The notes under the pieces: model-generated
The model's input: the letters and a program-made list of their open reading frames with translations, nothing else
What the model was told of the DNA's origin: nothing
Database searches by the model: none
Origin: Chloropicon primus
Taxonomy: Eukaryota
Length of the DNA stretch: 64,000 bases
Reading direction: 5' to 3'
NCBI GenBank assembly: GCA_023205875.1
Contig: CP060762.1
Span: 124,001 to 188,000, forward strand
Position numbers and translations under genes: made by a program
Shown here: one piece after another, positions 17,418-63,799 of the stretch
Layout of the letters: each line of letters starts with the position of its first letter
How positions within the stretch are numbered: position 1 is the stretch's first letter

Positions 17418-20400
17418 ATGGCCGAGCGAGCAATCATGGCCCTGCTGGACCCGCGCAGGAACTTCAAGTCGGACTTCGACCAGCAGCTTGTGCAGGAGAC
17501 GGTCGACCCCATCATTGCGGGATACATCCGCAAGAAGGGGTTGAAGCCTGCCTTGCGTTCGATACTTCGCATCACAACCGACCAGAACTTTCGTGAGGTT
17601 TGGGCCAAAGACTTCGAGCACATGCTTCAGAAGGAGGGAGACCTGACAAGGAAGGAGCTGAAGGAGAAGGTGGCGAGTGGGGTCGATCTCGAGCTGCTGC
17701 GCAGCCGGGGAGCGACCGAGCACGAGCTCGAGGTTGCTGGTGTTCCACCGGGAAAGCTGGACGAGGAGAAGATGATCGAGGAGGATAACTACGAGGAGTT
17801 CCTGAAGAACATCTTCTTGCAGGCGGACAAGAGGATGAACGACGTGAACCAGAGGGAAGTCGCGAGTGCTCTGAATGACTTGAACAAACTCACGAATTAC
17901 ATGAACATCTTGGTCAAGGACACGACGGACTACATGTCCAAGACCAACGACCTCATGCAGAACACCGGGGAGGCCGAGAGGTACGCAGGCACGACGAAGG
18001 GAAGCCTGGGAAGTGGCAGAAACGTTCATCAGATCAATCTGAAGGACGTGTCTCCAGACGGAGCCACCATGGACCTCACCGCGAGCAGGCTGGCCAGTCC
18101 CATGGATTCTTATACCTCCCAGAACGACAGGGACAGGAGACTCAGTAACGCGTACGAGCAGAGGAGGCTGAGCAACGCTTACGAACAGAGGAGGCTGAGC
18201 AACGCTTACGAGCAGAGGAGGCTGAGCAACGCGTATGAGAACAGAAGGCTCAGTAATGCCATGGAAGGCAAGACCGTTGCTTCAAGAGGGGTGGGCTCTC
18301 AGATGGAGGGAAATATGAGCACGATCAATATGACTCAGTTCCAACTTCCAGGGATCAACGCGGCGGCGAACAACATCAAGTTCTGCAAGCTTTTGCTTCA
18401 GTCCGGTGTAAAGTGTTTCTGCTTCTCGCGAAAGAATCCTGCCAAGGCGCCAACGGAGTACTGTCTGTACAGGGACGGCGACCAGCTTTTCTGGAAGCTG
18501 AAGAACAAGGGCAAGAAGACTTACCTCAACGTGGTGAGCGCGGCGGAGGGTTTGCCTCTTTGGTTCACGGACGGCGACATCTTGAAGAACTCGTTCATCA
18601 AGGCAAAGTTCTTGGGCAAGAACTTCTTCGAGAGGTGCTCCCTCCAGATCAACATGCAGGACCTGAGGAAGAAGGTCGCGGTGGAGTGCGTGTTGACCTT
18701 CGAGGCGGACGTGATTGCCGAAAAGCTTGCGTTCTACTTGAACACCGACGCCCTCGACGATAGCATGACGAAGATCAGGGGCACCAAGAGGGCCTCCATC
18801 ATCATGCAGACAAGGAGCAGAGCGAAGACGCTTCAGAACCAGTCCCAGCAAGGCAACTTCATCTCCCAGAACGAGGTCAAGAAGCAGGACAAGGCGTCCA
18901 ACGCGTTCTACACCAACACTGCGGCGAGGAAGAAGCAGGAGAAGACGAAGAAGGAGGCAGAGTTCCTTCTCAACGCCATGTCCAAGTGCCCCGTCTTCAA
19001 CGGCATCAGCGACGAGTTGAAGAACGAGGTCGTGCAGGTGGCCAGGAAGACGAACATTGCGGAGGGCATGATCGTGTGCCAGAAAGGAAACTTTGCGAGC
19101 AACTTCTACATTGTGGAAGAAGGCTCTTTGCTGGCTTATCTGAGCGAGATGGTGGACGAGTCCTCTATACCGGACATCGAGTACAAGAAGGAGGATTACT
19201 TTGGAGAGTGCTCCCTGATATTCAAGTCACCAAATCTGCACCACGTGATTGCGGATGGAGACTGTGTTCTGTGGGCCCTGGATCAAGAGACGTTCAAGAA
19301 AGTTGTCTCGGGCAACGCTGACCTTCAGAAGTCCCTTGACACCCTGCTTGAGGTCGCCATCTTCAACGGGCTGGACGATGCAATGTTTGCGAACATTATT
19401 CTGGACTTCGAGGTGCAAAAATTCGGGCCAGACGAAGTCATCGTGGCCATGGACTCCAAAACTCCGCGCTTTTACGTCCTGCAGGGCGGCACCGTGGATG
19501 TTGCTGGCAACTGGTACGGGAAGAGTGAGACGTCCGATAGGGTGGAAAAGAGTCTCAACATACCTGGTCAGTTCTTTGGTGACTTTGAGCTCTGTTTTGA
19601 CTTGAATATGGCGAGGACGTACAAAGCTGGGGCCAAGGGGGCTACATTGCTTACTCTGAGCAGGCAAAGGTTCGGCGAGCTCTCCGACTTCATCGTCGAG
19701 GTCTCTGAGAGCAACTTGAAGAGGCAGGTCCTGCACAGTCTTCCTACATTCGCAACACTTGATGACTTTGAGGTCATGGATGTCATAGACTCGTTTGAGG
19801 TGGAGACGGTTAAGAAGGGAGAGTTGATCATTAAGAAGGGAGATATTGGTGACAAGTTCTACTTCATCAAGACGGGAGAATGCGTCGTGATGGACAAGGA
19901 CAAGGATGGAAACCTGAAGATTTTGACCAAGATCATTGGCCACGCGTCTTTCGGTGAGCTGGCTCTGCTCAGTGACGACCCAAGGAGTGCTTACGTTGCT
20001 GCGGACACGGATGTGGAGCTCTACTCCTTGACGAGGGAGGCCTTCAGGCAGCTTGTGGACACAGCCAACAAGCAGGGCTCGAAGAGCAAGACTCTGAGCA
20101 TCATTTCCAACATTGACCTTCTCAACGCTCTTTCCGAGAACGATTTCAGTGTCCTCACGGATGCCTTGAACGTCGAAAACTTTTCGGAGGGCGACAGGAT
20201 CATCAAGAGCGGGGATATTAACGACAAATTGTTCATCGTTTCCAAGGGAGAGCTCCTGCTGACAAGGGACCAAGAGTCATTCACTGAGAGGGTCCGCTTG
20301 CTTCCCGGTAACCACTTCGGGGAAAGGGCGCTGATGCAGGCGGAGCACTGCTTTTACAACGTCACCGCAACTCGTGTGACGGAGCTCCTGACGCTGTCGA

Positions 20401-57072: not shown

Positions 57073-57415
57073 ATGGACTGGCTCAGGAGAGGAGGAGGAG
57101 GAGGCGCAAAGGATGATGGACATCGATGGCGATTGAGGACGGATGGCAAGCTTGCCAGGAGAAAGGATGTTGCTGGTGCAAAGATCGTCTCTTCACCTTT
57201 CGAAAGAGGTCCCGCATTGGAGACTGGGACTCACTCTGTCAATGGACTGGCTCTGCAGGAGGAGAGAAGGAGGAGAGGAGGAGGAGGCGCAAAGGATGGT
57301 GGACATCGATGGCGATTGAGGACGGATGGCAAGCTTGCCAGGAGAAAGGATGTTGCTGGTGCAAAGATCGTCTCTTCACCTTTCGAAAGAGGTCCCGCAT
57401 TGGAGACTGGGACTC
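57073..57415. repeat. Direct tandem duplication (core about 140 bp, offset 183, one visible mismatch)
   Basis: GGAGGCGCAAAGGATG(A/G)TGGACATCG...GAGACTGGGACTC ends at 57232 and again at 57415. Confidence 0.95.
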
Positions 57416-57487: not shown

Positions 57488-58705
57488 CTACAAGAACTGG
57501 GAAATCCACTGCGAGACGTGCGTGTGGCCGTTCTTGTCCGCGCAGAACGCGCACGTGTACTTGTCCCAAGGGCACCCTGCCCTCGTTGTCCATTGCAACA
57601 ACTCAAGGTGGCCGTACTGTCGTCGAACAAGAGTGGAGGGAGAGAGAGAGAGAGAGAGAGAGAGTCAGCAACTCGTCCAGCTCAAGTCCTGACAGAGGGT
57701 TCAACTTACCATCGCAGCATACTCTGCAGTATCCTCGTCCCAGGGACAAGGCGGATCCTGGCTTCGAAGCCACTGCAGCACGTCAAGGTGGCCCCCTTTG
57801 GCTGCGCAAAACGAAGTTCTAGTGTTGAGGATCTCCAACTCGGGCATATCAACCCAGAGATTCGCCCTGTGCTCCTCCTCCAGGTGCGACACTAGCCACT
57901 TCAGTGTTTCCAGGTGTCCTCCTTCAGCGGCATAGCTGCAGACCTTCCTGTCCGTCCAAGGGCACCCATTCTCCCTGGCCCACTTCAAGCACTTGAGGTG
58001 TCCGCCACGTGCAGCCCGGTGGCAAACTCTCTCTCCCCAAGGGCACCCATTCTCCCTGGCCCACTTGAGGACCTCCAGGCGACCCTCCGCAGCTGCACCA
58101 GCGCAAGTGTACTCGTCCCAAGCGCAGCCAGCCTTACTCCTCAGCCATTTCAGCACCTCGATGTGGCCGCCCTTGGCGGCGTTCGCACACGCCCATGGCT
58201 CCCACACTCTACTTCTGACGCTGGCTCTGCCGTACAACGATCCATAGAGGTCCTTGGACCTCTGCTCCCAAAGCTGGAGGATCGAGAGGTAGCCACGGCT
58301 GGCCGAACCGTTGATGAGCAAGCTCCTCACTTTCAGCTCCCTCTTCACGTCCTCCTCCTCCTCCTCCTCGTCGTCGTCCTCACAATCGTCGTGAACGTCC
58401 ATCTCCATGCCCTCCATCAAGCGTTTCAGGCTCGAGGTGTGCCAGGCAGTGTGCCACGCGAACCAGTCCTCCGACAGGGTGTCGACCGAGTTGTGGAGGT
58501 AAACTTTCATTCTCGTTCTCAGCGGTCTTTTGGATTGGGCTTGAACGCTTCTGAATCTCTTGCAAGCCATTGAAAACGCCAACACGTCGTTCCCGTGGAC
58601 ATCATCCAGTATCCTCCCCCAAACGTGGGTCGGCAAGTCCACCAAGGTTCCCCTCCCTCCCTCCTCCTCCCTTCCTCCTTCACTCCCTCGCCTTCTCTTC
58701 GTCAT
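57488..58705 (-). CDS. F-box-like + ankyrin-like repeat protein (exons 58705-57710, 57616-57488)
   Basis: LVDLPTHVWGRIL..D..AFSMACK.F N-terminus; CPW..C..AA.GGHL..L.W repeats. GTAAGT donor and CAG acceptor add a terminal exon YGHLELLQW..GCPWDKYTC..QFL*. Confidence 0.88.
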
Positions 58706-58766: not shown

Positions 58767-58941
58767 CCACTTGTACGACTGTGACCTGATGCACCTCGCC
58801 GCTTTCCAGGGCAGCAATCAGGTGCTGCAGTGGTTGCGAAGCCAGGACCCGCCTTGCCCTTGGATCCCAAACAGGTGCAGAATTGTGGCGAAGCACCGCA
58901 ATCACCAGCACGCCGTCGATTGGATCAATGCCAATATTTAA
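58767..58941 (+). pseudogene. 5'-truncated remnant of the ankyrin-like gene family
   Basis: HLYDCDLMHLAAFQGS..VLQWLRSQDPPCPW..WINANI* matches the 59478-60293 gene but lacks its start, the F-box-like region and the internal repeats. Confidence 0.8.
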
Positions 58942-60620
58942 CCAAGAACAATGTCTCACGACGAACCTGTCATCGACCTTCGCTTTCCTTCCTGGTTCCT
59001 CCTCCTTCCTCTTTCTCCTCTCCTCCTCTCTTTGTTTCTTTCTCTCGGTGGATTTTCTCCCTTCCGCTGAACCATCATAACGGCCCGAGGCCACGAGGGG
59101 CCGAACGAGGAGCACGAGAGAGAAACGGAGAGGACGGGAGAGCGCGGAGGAGGAAGAGAGAGAAGAGGCGGACAGGAAAGAAGGAAGCGTCGTCTCGTGC
59201 TCTTTCGAACGAGCTCTCGCGCGAAAGAAACGACCCAGTGGTGAGGATCTGGCGACGACACGAAACGAGAGAGAGAGGAAACGAAAGGACGATCAAGGCG
59301 TAGATCACCGAGGAGGGGAGGCGACGACGAGGGCGGGAGTTTGTGCCGGAGGGTTTTCGAGTGATAGACGAGCGGAAGGAGTGTCTTTTCCTCATTCGAA
59401 CGAGCCCTCGCGCGCCACAAGAAGGACCCGGTGGTGGGGATCATCTGAGGAGCACGGGCACACGGACGGACGTGATCATGATGGAGGAGACGAGGGAGAG
59501 CAGAAGGCAGAGGAGGAAGGGCAGGGACGCGTTGGATGTGCTGCCGGAGTGGGCGTGGCTCCTGGTCTTGAAGCAGCTGGATGAGTACGACCACCTCGCT
59601 TTTGGTTTGACCTGCAGGGCGTTCCTCGTCGTGGGGAGGATTACGGCGAGGGCGATGGCGAACCCTTCTGACCACCCTCAGAAGGAAACGCAGAAGGGTC
59701 TTCCTCTGAGGACGAACTTGGCACACGAAACGTTGTTCAAGCAGATGCCTCGCTTCAGTTTGAGTTGGTTCCAGTGGGTGTCTCGGTCGTTCAAAAGGAG
59801 GAAGGGAGCACCGAAAGAGTTGAGATATGGCGAGTACTACGACCACTTGTACGACTGTGACCTGATGTACCTCGCCGCTTTCCAGGGCAGCAAGAAGGTG
59901 ATGGAGTGGTTGGCGAGCCAAGGGATCTCTTTTGGTATCGAGCGCTATTATCATGGAGTGGTAGCAGTAGCAACTGGAGGAGCCGCTGCAGGAGGTCATA
60001 TTGAGATATTGGAATGGCTGGGGAGCGAGGGGTGCGAGTTTGATAACTTGACTTGTTCTTCTGCAGCTCTTGGAGGTCACCTTGACGTTCTGAAGTGGCT
60101 CCGAAGCCAGGATCCGCCTTGCCCTTGGGACTGGAGGACTTGTGAATATGCAGCTGAAGGAGGTCACCTTGAGGTTCTGCAGTGGGCTCGAAGCCAGGAC
60201 CCGCCTTGCCGTTGGGACCCAATTGAATGCATGGTGTGGGCGGAGAGCAGGAAAGACCAGCACGCCATCGAATGGATCAATGCCAATATTTAACCAAGAA
60301 CAATGTCTCACGACGAACCTGTCATCGACCTTCGCTTTCCTTCCTGGTTCCTCCTCCTTCCTCTTTCTCCTCTCCTCCTCTCTTTGTTTCTTTCTCTCGG
60401 TGGATTTTCTCCCTTCCGCTGAACCATCATAACGGCCCGAGGCCACGAGGGGCCGAACGAGGAGCACGAGAGAGAAACGGAGAGGACGGGAGAGCGCGGA
60501 GGAGGAAGAGAGAGAAGAGGCGGACAGGAAAGAAGGAAGCGTCGTCTCGTGCTCTTTCGAACGAGCTCTCGCGCGAAAGAAACGACCCAGTGGTGAGGAT
60601 CTGGCGACACGAAACACGAA
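58904..60620 (+). repeat. Recent tandem segmental duplication (about 58904-59270 vs 60256-60620, offset 1352)
   Basis: Near-identical gene end plus intergenic sequence; similarity continues into the paralogous coding regions. Confidence 0.95.
59478..60293 (+). CDS. F-box-like + ankyrin-like repeat protein (short, 2 RSQDPP repeats)
   Basis: LDVLPEWAW..VL..L..YD..AFGLTCR.F; AA.GGHL.VL.W.RSQDPPC.W. Confidence 0.88.
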   Translation: MMEETRESRRQRRKGRDALDVLPEWAWLLVLKQLDEYDHLAFGLTCRAFLVVGRITARAMANPSDHPQKETQKGLPLRTNLAHETLFKQMPRFSLSWFQWVSRSFKRRKGAPKELRYGEYYDHLYDCDLMYLAAFQGSKKVMEWLASQGISFGIERYYHGVVAVATGGAAAGGHIEILEWLGSEGCEFDNLTCSSAALGGHLDVLKWLRSQDPPCPWDWRTCEYAAEGGHLEVLQWARSQDPPCRWDPIECMVWAESRKDQHAIEWINANI

Positions 60621-60812: not shown

Positions 60813-62402
60813 ATGGAGGAGACGATGGAGAGCAAGAGGCAGAGGAGGGAGGGCAGGGATGCACTGGACGTGCTGCCGGGGGTACTGTGGAGCGTCATTG
60901 GCACGCATGTGGCCGACTACGACCGGGTCGCTTTCGGGTTGACCTGCAGGACGTTCCTCGAGGCGGTGACAATGGCGACGACGGCGACGGCGACGGCGGC
61001 GAACCCTGAGCAGAAGAAGGTTGCTCTGAAGACGGACCTGTCGCAAGAGAAGTTGTTCAAGGAGATGCCTTGCTTCAGCATGGATTGGTTCCAGTGGGTG
61101 CTTCGGTCGTTCGAAAGGAGGAAGGGAGCATCGGCAGAAGAGGATGATAGATGTCGAGGGTACGACGACCCCTTGTACGATTCTGACCTGCTGCACCTCG
61201 CCGCTTTCCAGGGCAGCAAGAAGGTGATCAAGTGGTTGGTGAGCCAAGGGATCCCTTTGGAGATCAAGGGCTGGTGGTCTGGAGCAGCTGCTACAGAAGC
61301 TGCTACAGGAGCTGCTGGAGGAGGTCACCTTGAGTTGCTGGAATGGTTGAGGAGCGAGGGGCACGGGTTTAATGTGTGGACCTGTTCTTATGCAGCTCGG
61401 GGAGGTCACCTTGACGTTCTGAAGTGGCTCCGAAGCCAGGATCCGCCTTGCCCTTGGAACAAGAGGACTTGTGAATATGCAGCTCGAGGAGGCCACCTTC
61501 ACGTTCTGCAGTGGGCTCGAAGCCAGGACCCGCCTTGCCCTTGGGACGAGGTGACTTGTTTGGGGGCAGCTGAAGGAGCTCACCTTGATGTTCTGCAGTG
61601 GGCTCGAAGCCAGGACCCGCCTTGCCCTTGGAACAAGTGGACGTGTAGGATGGCAGCTCTTGGAGGTCACCTTGAGGTTCTGCAGTGGGCTCGAAGCCAG
61701 GACCCGCCTTGTGTTTGGGACGAGTGGACTTGTTATGAGGCAGCTCGAAGAGGTCACCTTGACATGCTGCAGTGGCTTCGAAGCCAGGACCCACCTTGCC
61801 CTTGGGACCGGAAGACTTGTTCTAATGCAGCTGGAGGAGGTCACCTTGAGGTTCTGCAGTGGGCTCGAAGCCAGGACCCACCTTGTGATTGGGACGAGAT
61901 GACTTGTGGATGGGCAGCTGAAGGAGGTCACCTTGACGTTCTGCAGTGGGCTCGAAGCCAGGACCCACCTTGTGATTGGGACTTGTGGACTTGTAAATGG
62001 GCAGCTCGAGGAGGGCACCTTCACGTTCTGCAGTGGCTTCGAAGCCAGGACCCGCCTTGCCCTTGGAACAAGGCGACTTGTGATTGGGCAGCTCGAGGAG
62101 GTCACCTTGATGTTCTGCAGTGGGCTCGAAGCCAGGACCCGCCTTGTGATTGGGGCGAGATGACTTGTGGATGGGCAGCTCAAGGAGGTTGGCTTGATAT
62201 TCTCATGTGGCTCCGAAGCCAGGACCCGCCTTGCCCTTGGGACCCTGAGGAGATTTATGACACGGCAGATGAAGAAGGCCACCTTCACATCTTGCAGTGG
62301 CTTCAGCTGGAGTTGCGTTTCGAACCGAGTTTAAGCGACGTGAGCTCCGGACGAAGCAGCGTGGAGGAGGACGAGGACGACGACTACACTGATGACGTCT
62401 GA
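60813..62402 (+). CDS. F-box-like + ankyrin-like repeat protein (long, 10 RSQDPP repeats of 29 aa)
   Basis: Paralog of 59478-60293; exact 87-nt period from 61431 to 62214; acidic C-terminal tail. Confidence 0.9.
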   Translation: MEETMESKRQRREGRDALDVLPGVLWSVIGTHVADYDRVAFGLTCRTFLEAVTMATTATATAANPEQKKVALKTDLSQEKLFKEMPCFSMDWFQWVLRSFERRKGASAEEDDRCRGYDDPLYDSDLLHLAAFQGSKKVIKWLVSQGIPLEIKGWWSGAAATEAATGAAGGGHLELLEWLRSEGHGFNVWTCSYAARGGHLDVLKWLRSQDPPCPWNKRTCEYAARGGHLHVLQWARSQDPPCPWDEVTCLGAAEGAHLDVLQWARSQDPPCPWNKWTCRMAALGGHLEVLQWARSQDPPCVWDEWTCYEAARRGHLDMLQWLRSQDPPCPWDRKTCSNAAGGGHLEVLQWARSQDPPCDWDEMTCGWAAEGGHLDVLQWARSQDPPCDWDLWTCKWAARGGHLHVLQWLRSQDPPCPWNKATCDWAARGGHLDVLQWARSQDPPCDWGEMTCGWAAQGGWLDILMWLRSQDPPCPWDPEEIYDTADEEGHLHILQWLQLELRFEPSLSDVSSGRSSVEEDEDDDYTDDV

Positions 62403-62763: not shown

Positions 62764-63138
62764 ATGGCGCACAGTGCGGGTTCGGAGTACTTGAAGGGCG
62801 TGCTGGAGGATGGCGAGGCGGTGGTGAGGTTCGGTGAGGTGACCAAGAGGAAGGCTGGGATCGCGACTGGGGCGTTTACTTGCCAGAAGCGTCTTTTGGT
62901 TCTCACGAGCAAGCCGAGACTGCTTTACTTCTGCGTCGATTCCAAGGTTTTCAAGGGAGAGCTTGACGAGGTCGTGACGTGCTACAAGAAGACCGAGACC
63001 AAGTTCGTGGTGAAGACGACGAAGAAGGAGAGGATCTTCGAGACGGGGGAGGACACCGGGGATCAGTCCGCCGATGCTTGGTGCACGCAGATAAGGTTCG
63101 ACTTTGCTGGAACGGAGCACTACGGGAGCCGCTATTGA
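62764..63138 (+). CDS. Small stand-alone PH-domain protein (PDK1-type PH)
   Basis: L..GE.VV..G.V.KRK.G...KR.LVLT.KPRLLY....KGE..F.V.T..R.F..A..WC..I. Confidence 0.78.
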   Translation: MAHSAGSEYLKGVLEDGEAVVRFGEVTKRKAGIATGAFTCQKRLLVLTSKPRLLYFCVDSKVFKGELDEVVTCYKKTETKFVVKTTKKERIFETGEDTGDQSADAWCTQIRFDFAGTEHYGSRY

Positions 63139-63184
63139 CCGATTTGCGGGACCTCTTCTTGCATCTTTTGTTGTTGTGTGTTTG

Positions 63185-63799
63185 ATGATGACGCCGACGA
63201 CGGAGTTCTCGGACGGGGAGGAGGGGTTCATGAGGCTCGCGCTGGCGGAGGCGACCAAGGCGTTCGGGGAGGGGGAGATTCCGGTGGGGTGCGTCCTGGT
63301 TAGGGGGGGGGAGGTCGTCGGCAGGGGGGGGAACAAGACGAACGAGAGCAGGAACGGGAGCCGGCACTGCGAGATGGAAGCGATCGACGAGGTCCTGGGG
63401 AAGTTCGAGGCCGGATCGTTGGAGGTGGGTTCCGACTGCGCCATGTCCAAGTTCTGGTCGGAGGTCGACCTTTACGTGACCTGCGAGCCTTGCATCATGT
63501 GCGCCGGGGCGATCTCCCTCATGGGAATCAAGAACGTTTACTACGGTTGCTCCAACGACAAGTTCGGGGGCTGCGGGTCCGTGCACCCCGTGTCCGACCA
63601 AGGCTGCGGGACCTGCGGCGGGGGGGAGGAGCGCTTCGGCGCGGAGAACGTGAGGAGCTTCAGGTGCAGGAAAGGCCTTTTCGCGGAGGAAGCCATCGCG
63701 ATGCTGCAAGACTTTTACCTCAGGGGGAACGCGAGGGCGCCGAAGCCTCACAGGAAGGTCCTGTGGATGGATCGCAGGGAACAGCAGCAGGAGCACTGA
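63185..63799 (+). CDS. ADAT2: tRNA adenosine(34) deaminase catalytic subunit TAD2/ADAT2
   Basis: FM..AL.EA..A...GEIPVGCV, HCE, LYVTCEPCIMC, N.KFGGCGS, FY.RGN..AP.P. Confidence 0.92.
   Translation: MMTPTTEFSDGEEGFMRLALAEATKAFGEGEIPVGCVLVRGGEVVGRGGNKTNESRNGSRHCEMEAIDEVLGKFEAGSLEVGSDCAMSKFWSEVDLYVTCEPCIMCAGAISLMGIKNVYYGCSNDKFGGCGSVHPVSDQGCGTCGGGEERFGAENVRSFRCRKGLFAEEAIAMLQDFYLRGNARAPKPHRKVLWMDRREQQQEH

Follow-up and report, generated by a model that had tools for sequence, protein, structure and literature searches.

How single-celled algae recognize viruses and other intruders is, to our knowledge, largely an open question. Rapidly evolving F-box families of Caenorhabditis were reportedly described by Thomas in 2006. 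Published work on fungal NLRs (Podospora HNWD, Pa_3_8560) describes ANK, TPR and WD repeats with high internal conservation (PMC4986451), and that on brown algal ROCO LRR proteins describes repeats that are shuffled and under diversifying selection in proposed algal immune receptors (PMC11378527). For the Caenorhabditis F-box families, a published account reports lineage-specific expansion and positive selection in the substrate-binding part, with foreign proteins as the proposed targets (PMC8665587). ANK proteins of chloroviruses and poxviruses bind Skp1, and a link to SCF was shown for the chlorovirus proteins (PMC7019647, PMC5871332). ANK expansions are also known in Bodo saltans virus and Bathycoccus (PMC5871332, PMC3491373, PMC11409870), and the expanded algal ankyrin families either have no assigned function or have been linked to scales or to cold (PMC3491373, PMC11409870).

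We analyzed a single stretch of DNA of 64,000 nt, referred to throughout as the window, and focused on an uninterrupted open reading frame of 529 amino acids (60813–62402, + strand). Its host, Chloropicon primus, is a marine green alga. Residues 1–190 of the predicted protein are 100% identical to C. primus A3770_09p54450, which represents the same locus and belongs to orthogroup OG0000003. All parts of the gene lie on the + strand. A degenerate F-box-like head with three predicted helices (approximately residues 17–55; 60861–60977) is followed by a family-specific linker with two degenerate leading ankyrin-like units (60978–61367), ten 87-nt (29-aa) ankyrin-like units with hypervariable codons 3, 4, 7, 8 and 11 (61368–62237), and a divergent capping unit (62238–62324) that gives way to an acidic, low-confidence tail (together 62238–62402). 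Whereas each ROCO LRR repeat is described as an exon (PMC11378527), the focal array occupies one uninterrupted frame and has another fold and output domain.

Tandem Repeats Finder placed the array at 61392–62243 (period 87, 9.8 copies, 81% matches), and the ten in-frame units preceding the cap have the consensus WDxxTCxxAAxGGHLxVLQWARSQDPPCP. The five hypervariable positions each take 4–8 different residues in nine units, and pairs of units differ at 10–27 of 87 nt. These data confirm the hypervariable array noted at this locus in a preliminary description, down to the nine residue sets quoted there for five radically changing codons, all of which match units 1–9 exactly. The same description had called the scaffold nearly invariant even at silent sites, which requires some tempering: 9 of 13 constant degenerate codons are fully invariant in units 1–9, but the scaffold as a whole is not quite so (pS 0.16, pN 0.10), and positions 2, 16, 21 and 29 also vary, if less than the five hypervariable positions. 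Codon bias was ruled out as the source of silent invariance, since several of the invariant codons are rare in the 16 other window ORFs used for comparison, one of which has wrong bounds and internal stops (CGA 6%, GCA 11%, CTT 12%, ACT 13%). That the units share rare silent codons therefore points to recent common ancestry or conversion among them.

Recurrence of an EMTCGW cassette had been taken to suggest module copying. The cassette does occur in the non-adjacent units 6 and 9, three units apart, but because a 261-nt period also scores 84% in Tandem Repeats Finder, block duplication explains the recurrence as well as cassette copying does. A PHI-like recombination test was weak (p 0.011 with all informative sites, p 0.35 with scaffold sites). 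Near-identical units, repeat-number polymorphism and a proposed concerted evolution are features that the array has in common with the fungal NLR repeats (PMC4986451); its 81% nucleotide matches compare with a criterion of over 85% in that work, a protein-level measure. Unlike those repeats, the focal units are 29 aa long and have no beta-hairpin, and the host is a green alga.

A Pfam scan of six window ORFs found only ankyrin families in the focal protein, including Ank_4 at 100.6 bits against a cut-off of 22.7, and no NACHT or NB-ARC domain. In an AF2 model (mean pLDDT 82), each unit consists of two helices, the first of which (helix A) covers unit positions 3–11. The five variable sites fall within one 140-degree arc of a helical wheel, rank 3 of 126 choices, and their surface exposure rests on this wheel together with homology. 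The earlier expectation of a single contiguous face was thus matched, in the model, by one side of the predicted first helix, and homology to ankyrins suggests that the five residues may form a binding face. A canonical ankyrin repeat is a 33-residue unit with a TPLH motif and a beta-hairpin. The focal array departs from this definition: its 29-aa units carry TCxxAA, the AF2 model contains no beta-hairpin or strands in the array, and whole-chain TM scores by query to canonical ankyrins in Foldseek PDB are at most 0.34. It is instead a shortened variant shared with giant viruses. The best structural matches were ankyrin proteins of Pandoravirus, Cedratvirus and Pithovirus (best TM by query 0.63, 33% identity), which have a similar short ankyrin-like solenoid and some of which are named as F-box plus ankyrin proteins. 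Unlike viral ANK proteins, the focal gene is host-encoded, and its units are homogenized at the DNA level. The AAxxGHL core of DARPins also aligns with the focal unit, and two of the variable positions, 3 and 11, correspond to columns that also differ between the DARPin repeats compared; at positions 4, 7 and 8, in contrast, the focal unit has variable residues where TPLHL has its conserved T, H and L.

The F-box consensus usually has an acidic residue after LP. The focal head lacks one, and no Pfam F-box matched the head or the whole protein (P0001) at E ≤ 0.1. What stands of the earlier claim of an F-box/SCF receptor is family-level F-box homology and a predicted SKP1 interface. F-box-like Pfam matches at E ≤ 0.05 were obtained for 23 of 45 relatives, and a profile of 12 head sequences matched only F-box proteins in the PDB (7/7, best E 0.0033). 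The AF2 model places helices at residues 23–32, 35–44 and 46–61 of the focal head. A predicted complex of focal residues 12–62 with a stand-in SKP1 scored 0.75 against 0.02 for the best of three controls, but since the partner stands in for the SKP1 of the alga itself (it was taken from giant-virus bin locus L136) and the F-box/SKP1 pair is a textbook one, the prediction shows likeness, not binding. Predicted contacts lie mainly at SKP1 residues 99–159, the runs, made without alignments, agree in at least 92% of contacts, and partner pLDDT is at least 74. The score mark was reached by 51/78 solved and 2/108 mismatched microbial pairs, and by 71/105 solved and 2/126 unrelated eukaryote pairs. 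We consider it probable that the focal protein is a working SCF adaptor. The Skp1 motif of the chlorovirus proteins is C-terminal (PMC7019647), whereas the focal F-box-like head is N-terminal.

Thirty-five repeat ORFs, picked from 60, were scanned at E ≤ 0.001. An F-box was found in 9, a RING finger in 5 and neither in 21, so that two distinct ubiquitin-ligase modules have become attached to the repeat. QDPPCPW-type repeats with a C-terminal RING finger occur at L002:2132-3763, L003:1940-3328, L016, L057 and L061, two of them in viral contigs of 28% GC. Separately, SKP1-like sequence is present in seven viral contigs (L134–L140), of which L134 is a short fragment and L138 and L140 appear interrupted, possibly by introns.

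In the window, only two other genes and one remnant carry the focal repeat. Tandem paralogue B (271 aa; 59478–60293, +) has an F-box-like head and two full units, and exact tracts of 57, 50 and 45 nt are common to it and three different focal units. Collapsed remnant A (58767–58941, +) has no head, and its leading motif is fused straight to a last repeat. On the opposite strand, a divergent F-box (Pfam E 0.0016) and ankyrin-like gene (57701–58705, −) has a last unit that resembles the focal scaffold (80–89% over 57–76 nt). An intergenic spacer of approximately 300 nt (58918–59218, +) is 99–100% identical to 60270–60570, and the coding heads downstream of the duplicated spacers are mostly 68–83% identical; these spacers beside divergent heads, together with remnant A, indicate recent exchange at the locus. 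VLR assembly proceeds from an incomplete germline gene that is filled from flanking cassettes. The VLR-like logic proposed in the preliminary description is unsupported as somatic assembly, as the focal gene is a complete ORF with so few repeat-bearing neighbors in the window. Two other repeats were seen there: a 183-nt direct duplication (97% matches; 57085–57415) at the 5' end of a Sec1-family gene, and a 27-nt coding repeat, RRLSNAYEQ (4.3 copies; 18135–18250), in a 1354-aa ORF whose sequence resembles a cyclic-nucleotide-dependent kinase.

The focal gene and its neighbor belong to the first-listed C. primus-specific orthogroup, OG0000003, for which we counted 64 entries, 32 per strain, on 14 chromosomes (PMC12301720 supplement S1, part 1); the accompanying text places ankyrin proteins among the large species-specific families (PMC12301720). 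In supplement S2, the orthogroup with most entries among those specific to C. roscoffensis, OG0000000 (rows 3–136, three strains), opens with a putative ankyrin repeat protein and is likely the sister family of OG0000003. The focal-type repeat is widespread, with 2,540 of 7,985 scored candidate proteins matching at E ≤ 1e-30; named matches include C. roscoffensis, Raphidocelis, Klebsormidium, Seminavis, Cymbomonas and Balamuthia. The exact scaffold pattern had no match in metagenome contigs, and a similarity search found no related loci in viral contigs. Among 133 metagenome loci, the best 15 shown match the focal gene at only ~66–72%, so this comparison takes in no wild C. primus alleles as DNA.

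Paralogue heads form a patchwork of exact 16–57-residue blocks shared with different paralogues, although some of the records are metagenome or transcript assemblies that could be chimeric. Two transcript-derived records, P0150 and P0158, are identical after residue 41, but their heads match two different paralogues, P0005 and (by eye) P0006, which may reflect head swapping or an assembly chimera. With P0021, these are the transcript-derived records among the relatives; none corresponds to the focal gene.

Published long-read data bear on repeat number. In strain CCMP1205, 5 of 22 long reads (17 vs 5) carry a deletion within the focal array at chromosome 9:185687, called as −434 bp (PMC6731263 Supplementary Data 8). 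The published deletion sequence begins at window position 61774 and spans five units, corresponding to 61775–62209 (+). Removal of 435 nt preserves the frame and leaves 384 aa, whereas 434 would break it; the published lengths are noisy, however, since that table gives 89 for an insertion of one unit (87 nt). The deletion's share of reads is under the half expected for a stable heterozygote (p 0.017). A paralogue on chromosome 5 has a +89 bp insertion in 4 of 8 long reads (4 vs 4; PMC6731263 Supplementary Data 8), and its strain alleles, P0011/P0159, differ by exactly 29 residues, matching this insertion. Supplementary Data 8 was searched by motif, as part of 13 of 20 supplementary files covered, and indel sequences were compared over their first 400 characters, so that longer indels could hide further repeat units. 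Most indels in part 1 of 5 of that table look like tandem-repeat changes, and unit gain or loss is therefore not special in itself (PMC6731263).

The annotated strains are 99.91% identical (PMC12301720). Turnover between them is not extreme: seven related proteins show no difference between the strains, and of the 6 pairs that do differ, only 2 have an informative change in the repeats. Between alleles P0141 and P0153 there are 8 residue differences, of which 7 lie in a 10-residue stretch of the cap unit; P0006 and P0141 were rejected as alleles of each other because they are neighboring genes. Of the repeat differences that had been anticipated among long reads and strains, those in unit number are thus present in the two indels and the 29-residue allele gap, but no difference in repeat order separates the window sequence from the annotated protein of CCMP1205. 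That annotated model of the focal gene differs by one residue at a variable site, which may be an error. It also contains an out-of-frame stretch, repairable by a 62-nt GT-AG gap, that we read as a frameshift plus a false intron. The models of P0002, P0004, P0005 and P0011/P0159 are likewise out of frame within the repeat array. P0011/P0159 is out of frame in both strains and annotated as fused to a legumain. Any of these models may reflect an assembly error, a pseudogene or phase variation.

To assess selection, we used explicitly delimited units 1–9 of the focal gene. At the five variable codons pN is 0.593, compared with a scaffold pS of 0.157 and a scaffold pN of 0.103. Silent sites of the interleaved codons 5, 6, 9 and 10 are near-fixed (pS 0.063), which argues for selection over a mutation hotspot, and a regional hotspot was rejected on this basis. 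A tree-free minimum-change count gave 27.5 replacement changes over 12.2 sites against 11.7 silent changes over 19.5 sites, corresponding to an omega of 3.8 for the five variable codons and 0.53 for the scaffold (binomial p 5e-5). We also simulated neutral evolution with free recombination under six settings, each run 1500 times, in which silent divergence was taken as high as 2.5 times the observed value; no setting reached 0.593 in more than 1 of its 1,500 runs (P ≤ 0.0007). Although the variable sites were first chosen on the focal gene, two larger sets served as an independent check of that choice, with the proviso that columns fixed by regular expression are constant by construction. In the 41/139 proteins having at least five matched units, no other columns are as diverse as the five variable ones. 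Of 53 further arrays, taken from metagenome loci, 49 have a higher pN(variable) than pS(scaffold) (median ratio 2.0); these arrays are not independent, as three pairs share units and many come from few samples. The excess of amino-acid change that had been anticipated is supported at the five positions, and the hypervariable pattern is shared across the entire repeat family and is not special to the focal gene.

That recombination and diversifying selection shape these arrays is very probable. On the function of the protein, we lean toward a substrate receptor of an SCF ubiquitin ligase whose variable ankyrin-like units provide the binding surface for probably foreign or selfish targets. The degenerate F-box head would dock on SKP1, and the ten units, varying at five positions, would make one target-binding surface. 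The scaffold would be kept uniform, and the variable heads reshuffled, by gene conversion and unequal crossover acting both inside individual arrays and between the ~32 paralogues, with selection favoring novel residues at contact sites. As targets, viral or other non-self proteins seem to us close to an even bet, if slightly short of one; they are favored because of the analogy with nematode F-box families (PMC8665587) and fungal NLRs.

Instead of viruses, the same SCF adaptors might track fast-evolving endogenous targets, such as the proteins of transposons or of Fanzor/IS605 elements, or self/non-self factors. All of the structural and evolutionary evidence fits this explanation just as well. 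After OG0000003, the largest of the listed orthogroups specific to C. primus are those of IS605-like transposases, with ~30 entries per strain (PMC12301720 supplement S1, part 1), and Fanzors are reported in C. primus. However, the closest structural matches are giant-virus proteins, which suggests host-virus traffic but says nothing of the target. We regard endogenous targets as fairly unlikely.

We also considered that the family is dispensable, possibly virus-derived and minisatellite-like, in neutral turnover, with five surface codons that are merely unconstrained. Remnant A, the out-of-frame models and short members are all signs of birth and death, similar proteins are abundant in Pandoravirus, Cedratvirus and Pithovirus, and pN(variable) is not above pS in 4 of 53 arrays. 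Furthermore, pS would be lowered by any selection acting on silent sites of the scaffold or by biased conversion, both of which lie outside the simulated model. Unconstrained codons, however, should not outpace silent sites, whereas those observed change 3.8-fold faster, and the third base of codons 3 and 4 is G in 9/9 units while scaffold omega is 0.53. Neutral turnover is therefore very unlikely.

A dedicated mutator, whether a deaminase or adenine mutagenesis of the diversity-generating retroelement type, could in principle act on the variable codons, in which as many as four bases occur at positions 1 and 2 but the third base is retained (differences at positions 1/2/3 of 0.67/0.64/0.27). 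A deaminase ORF lies downstream of the array, after a PH-domain ORF (63095–63799). Diversity-generating retroelements act by adenine-specific mutagenesis of a variable region. Such mutagenesis was rejected since codons 9, 12 and 22 have silent adenines that do not change in any of the 9 units; many of the changes are, moreover, transversions, and the deaminase, a cytidine/adenosine deaminase family member, is one we take to be an ordinary tRNA-type enzyme, leaving a dedicated mutator highly improbable. We give equally little credence to a modular PPR- or TALE-like nucleic-acid reader with one unit per base, for although designed and natural PPR proteins are among the Foldseek PDB matches (TM by query 0.20–0.27), the ankyrin Pfam scores are far over cut-off, the array is net acidic (22 K/R vs 33 D/E) and the five positions take 14 different residues, which is no small code.

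The favored explanation, a diversified SCF substrate receptor, draws together features known separately. The five positions parallel the five positively selected positions reported on the binding surface of fungal NLR ANK units (PMC4986451), and repeat-number polymorphism and site-specific positive selection are both present in the focal family. Unlike the fungal NLRs, the focal protein has no NACHT/NB-ARC or cell-death domain, and its output module is the F-box-like head. Like the Caenorhabditis F-box families, the focal family is lineage-specific and expanded, with positive selection in its putative substrate-binding part. The Caenorhabditis binding domains are not described as homogenized tandem arrays in the text available (PMC8665587), whereas focal diversity lies in fixed codons of exchangeable 87-nt units. 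The evolutionary regime is thus already published for fungal NLR repeats and brown algal ROCO LRRs, and the architecture is known from giant viruses. We found no description of algal F-box proteins with hypervariable repeat units in the literature searched, which lay mostly outside subscription journals.

A more far-reaching scenario is that green algae possess a recombining repertoire of ubiquitin-ligase receptors, that mitotic unit loss, gain and conversion among the ~32 genes make new binding surfaces in clonal populations, that the receptors destroy giant-virus proteins, and that the viruses carry the same module as counter-weapons. Clonal diversification would fit the presence of the five-unit deletion in fewer reads than the heterozygote half, but we consider the scenario as a whole quite unlikely. 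Under the SCF receptor model, five named codons are available for swapping, which makes the idea directly testable, and the 29-residue unit is a small, naturally occurring scaffold for binders in which the positions to vary are marked from the outset. Overall, the focal family couples a variable repeat of the fungal NLR style to a putative degradation module.
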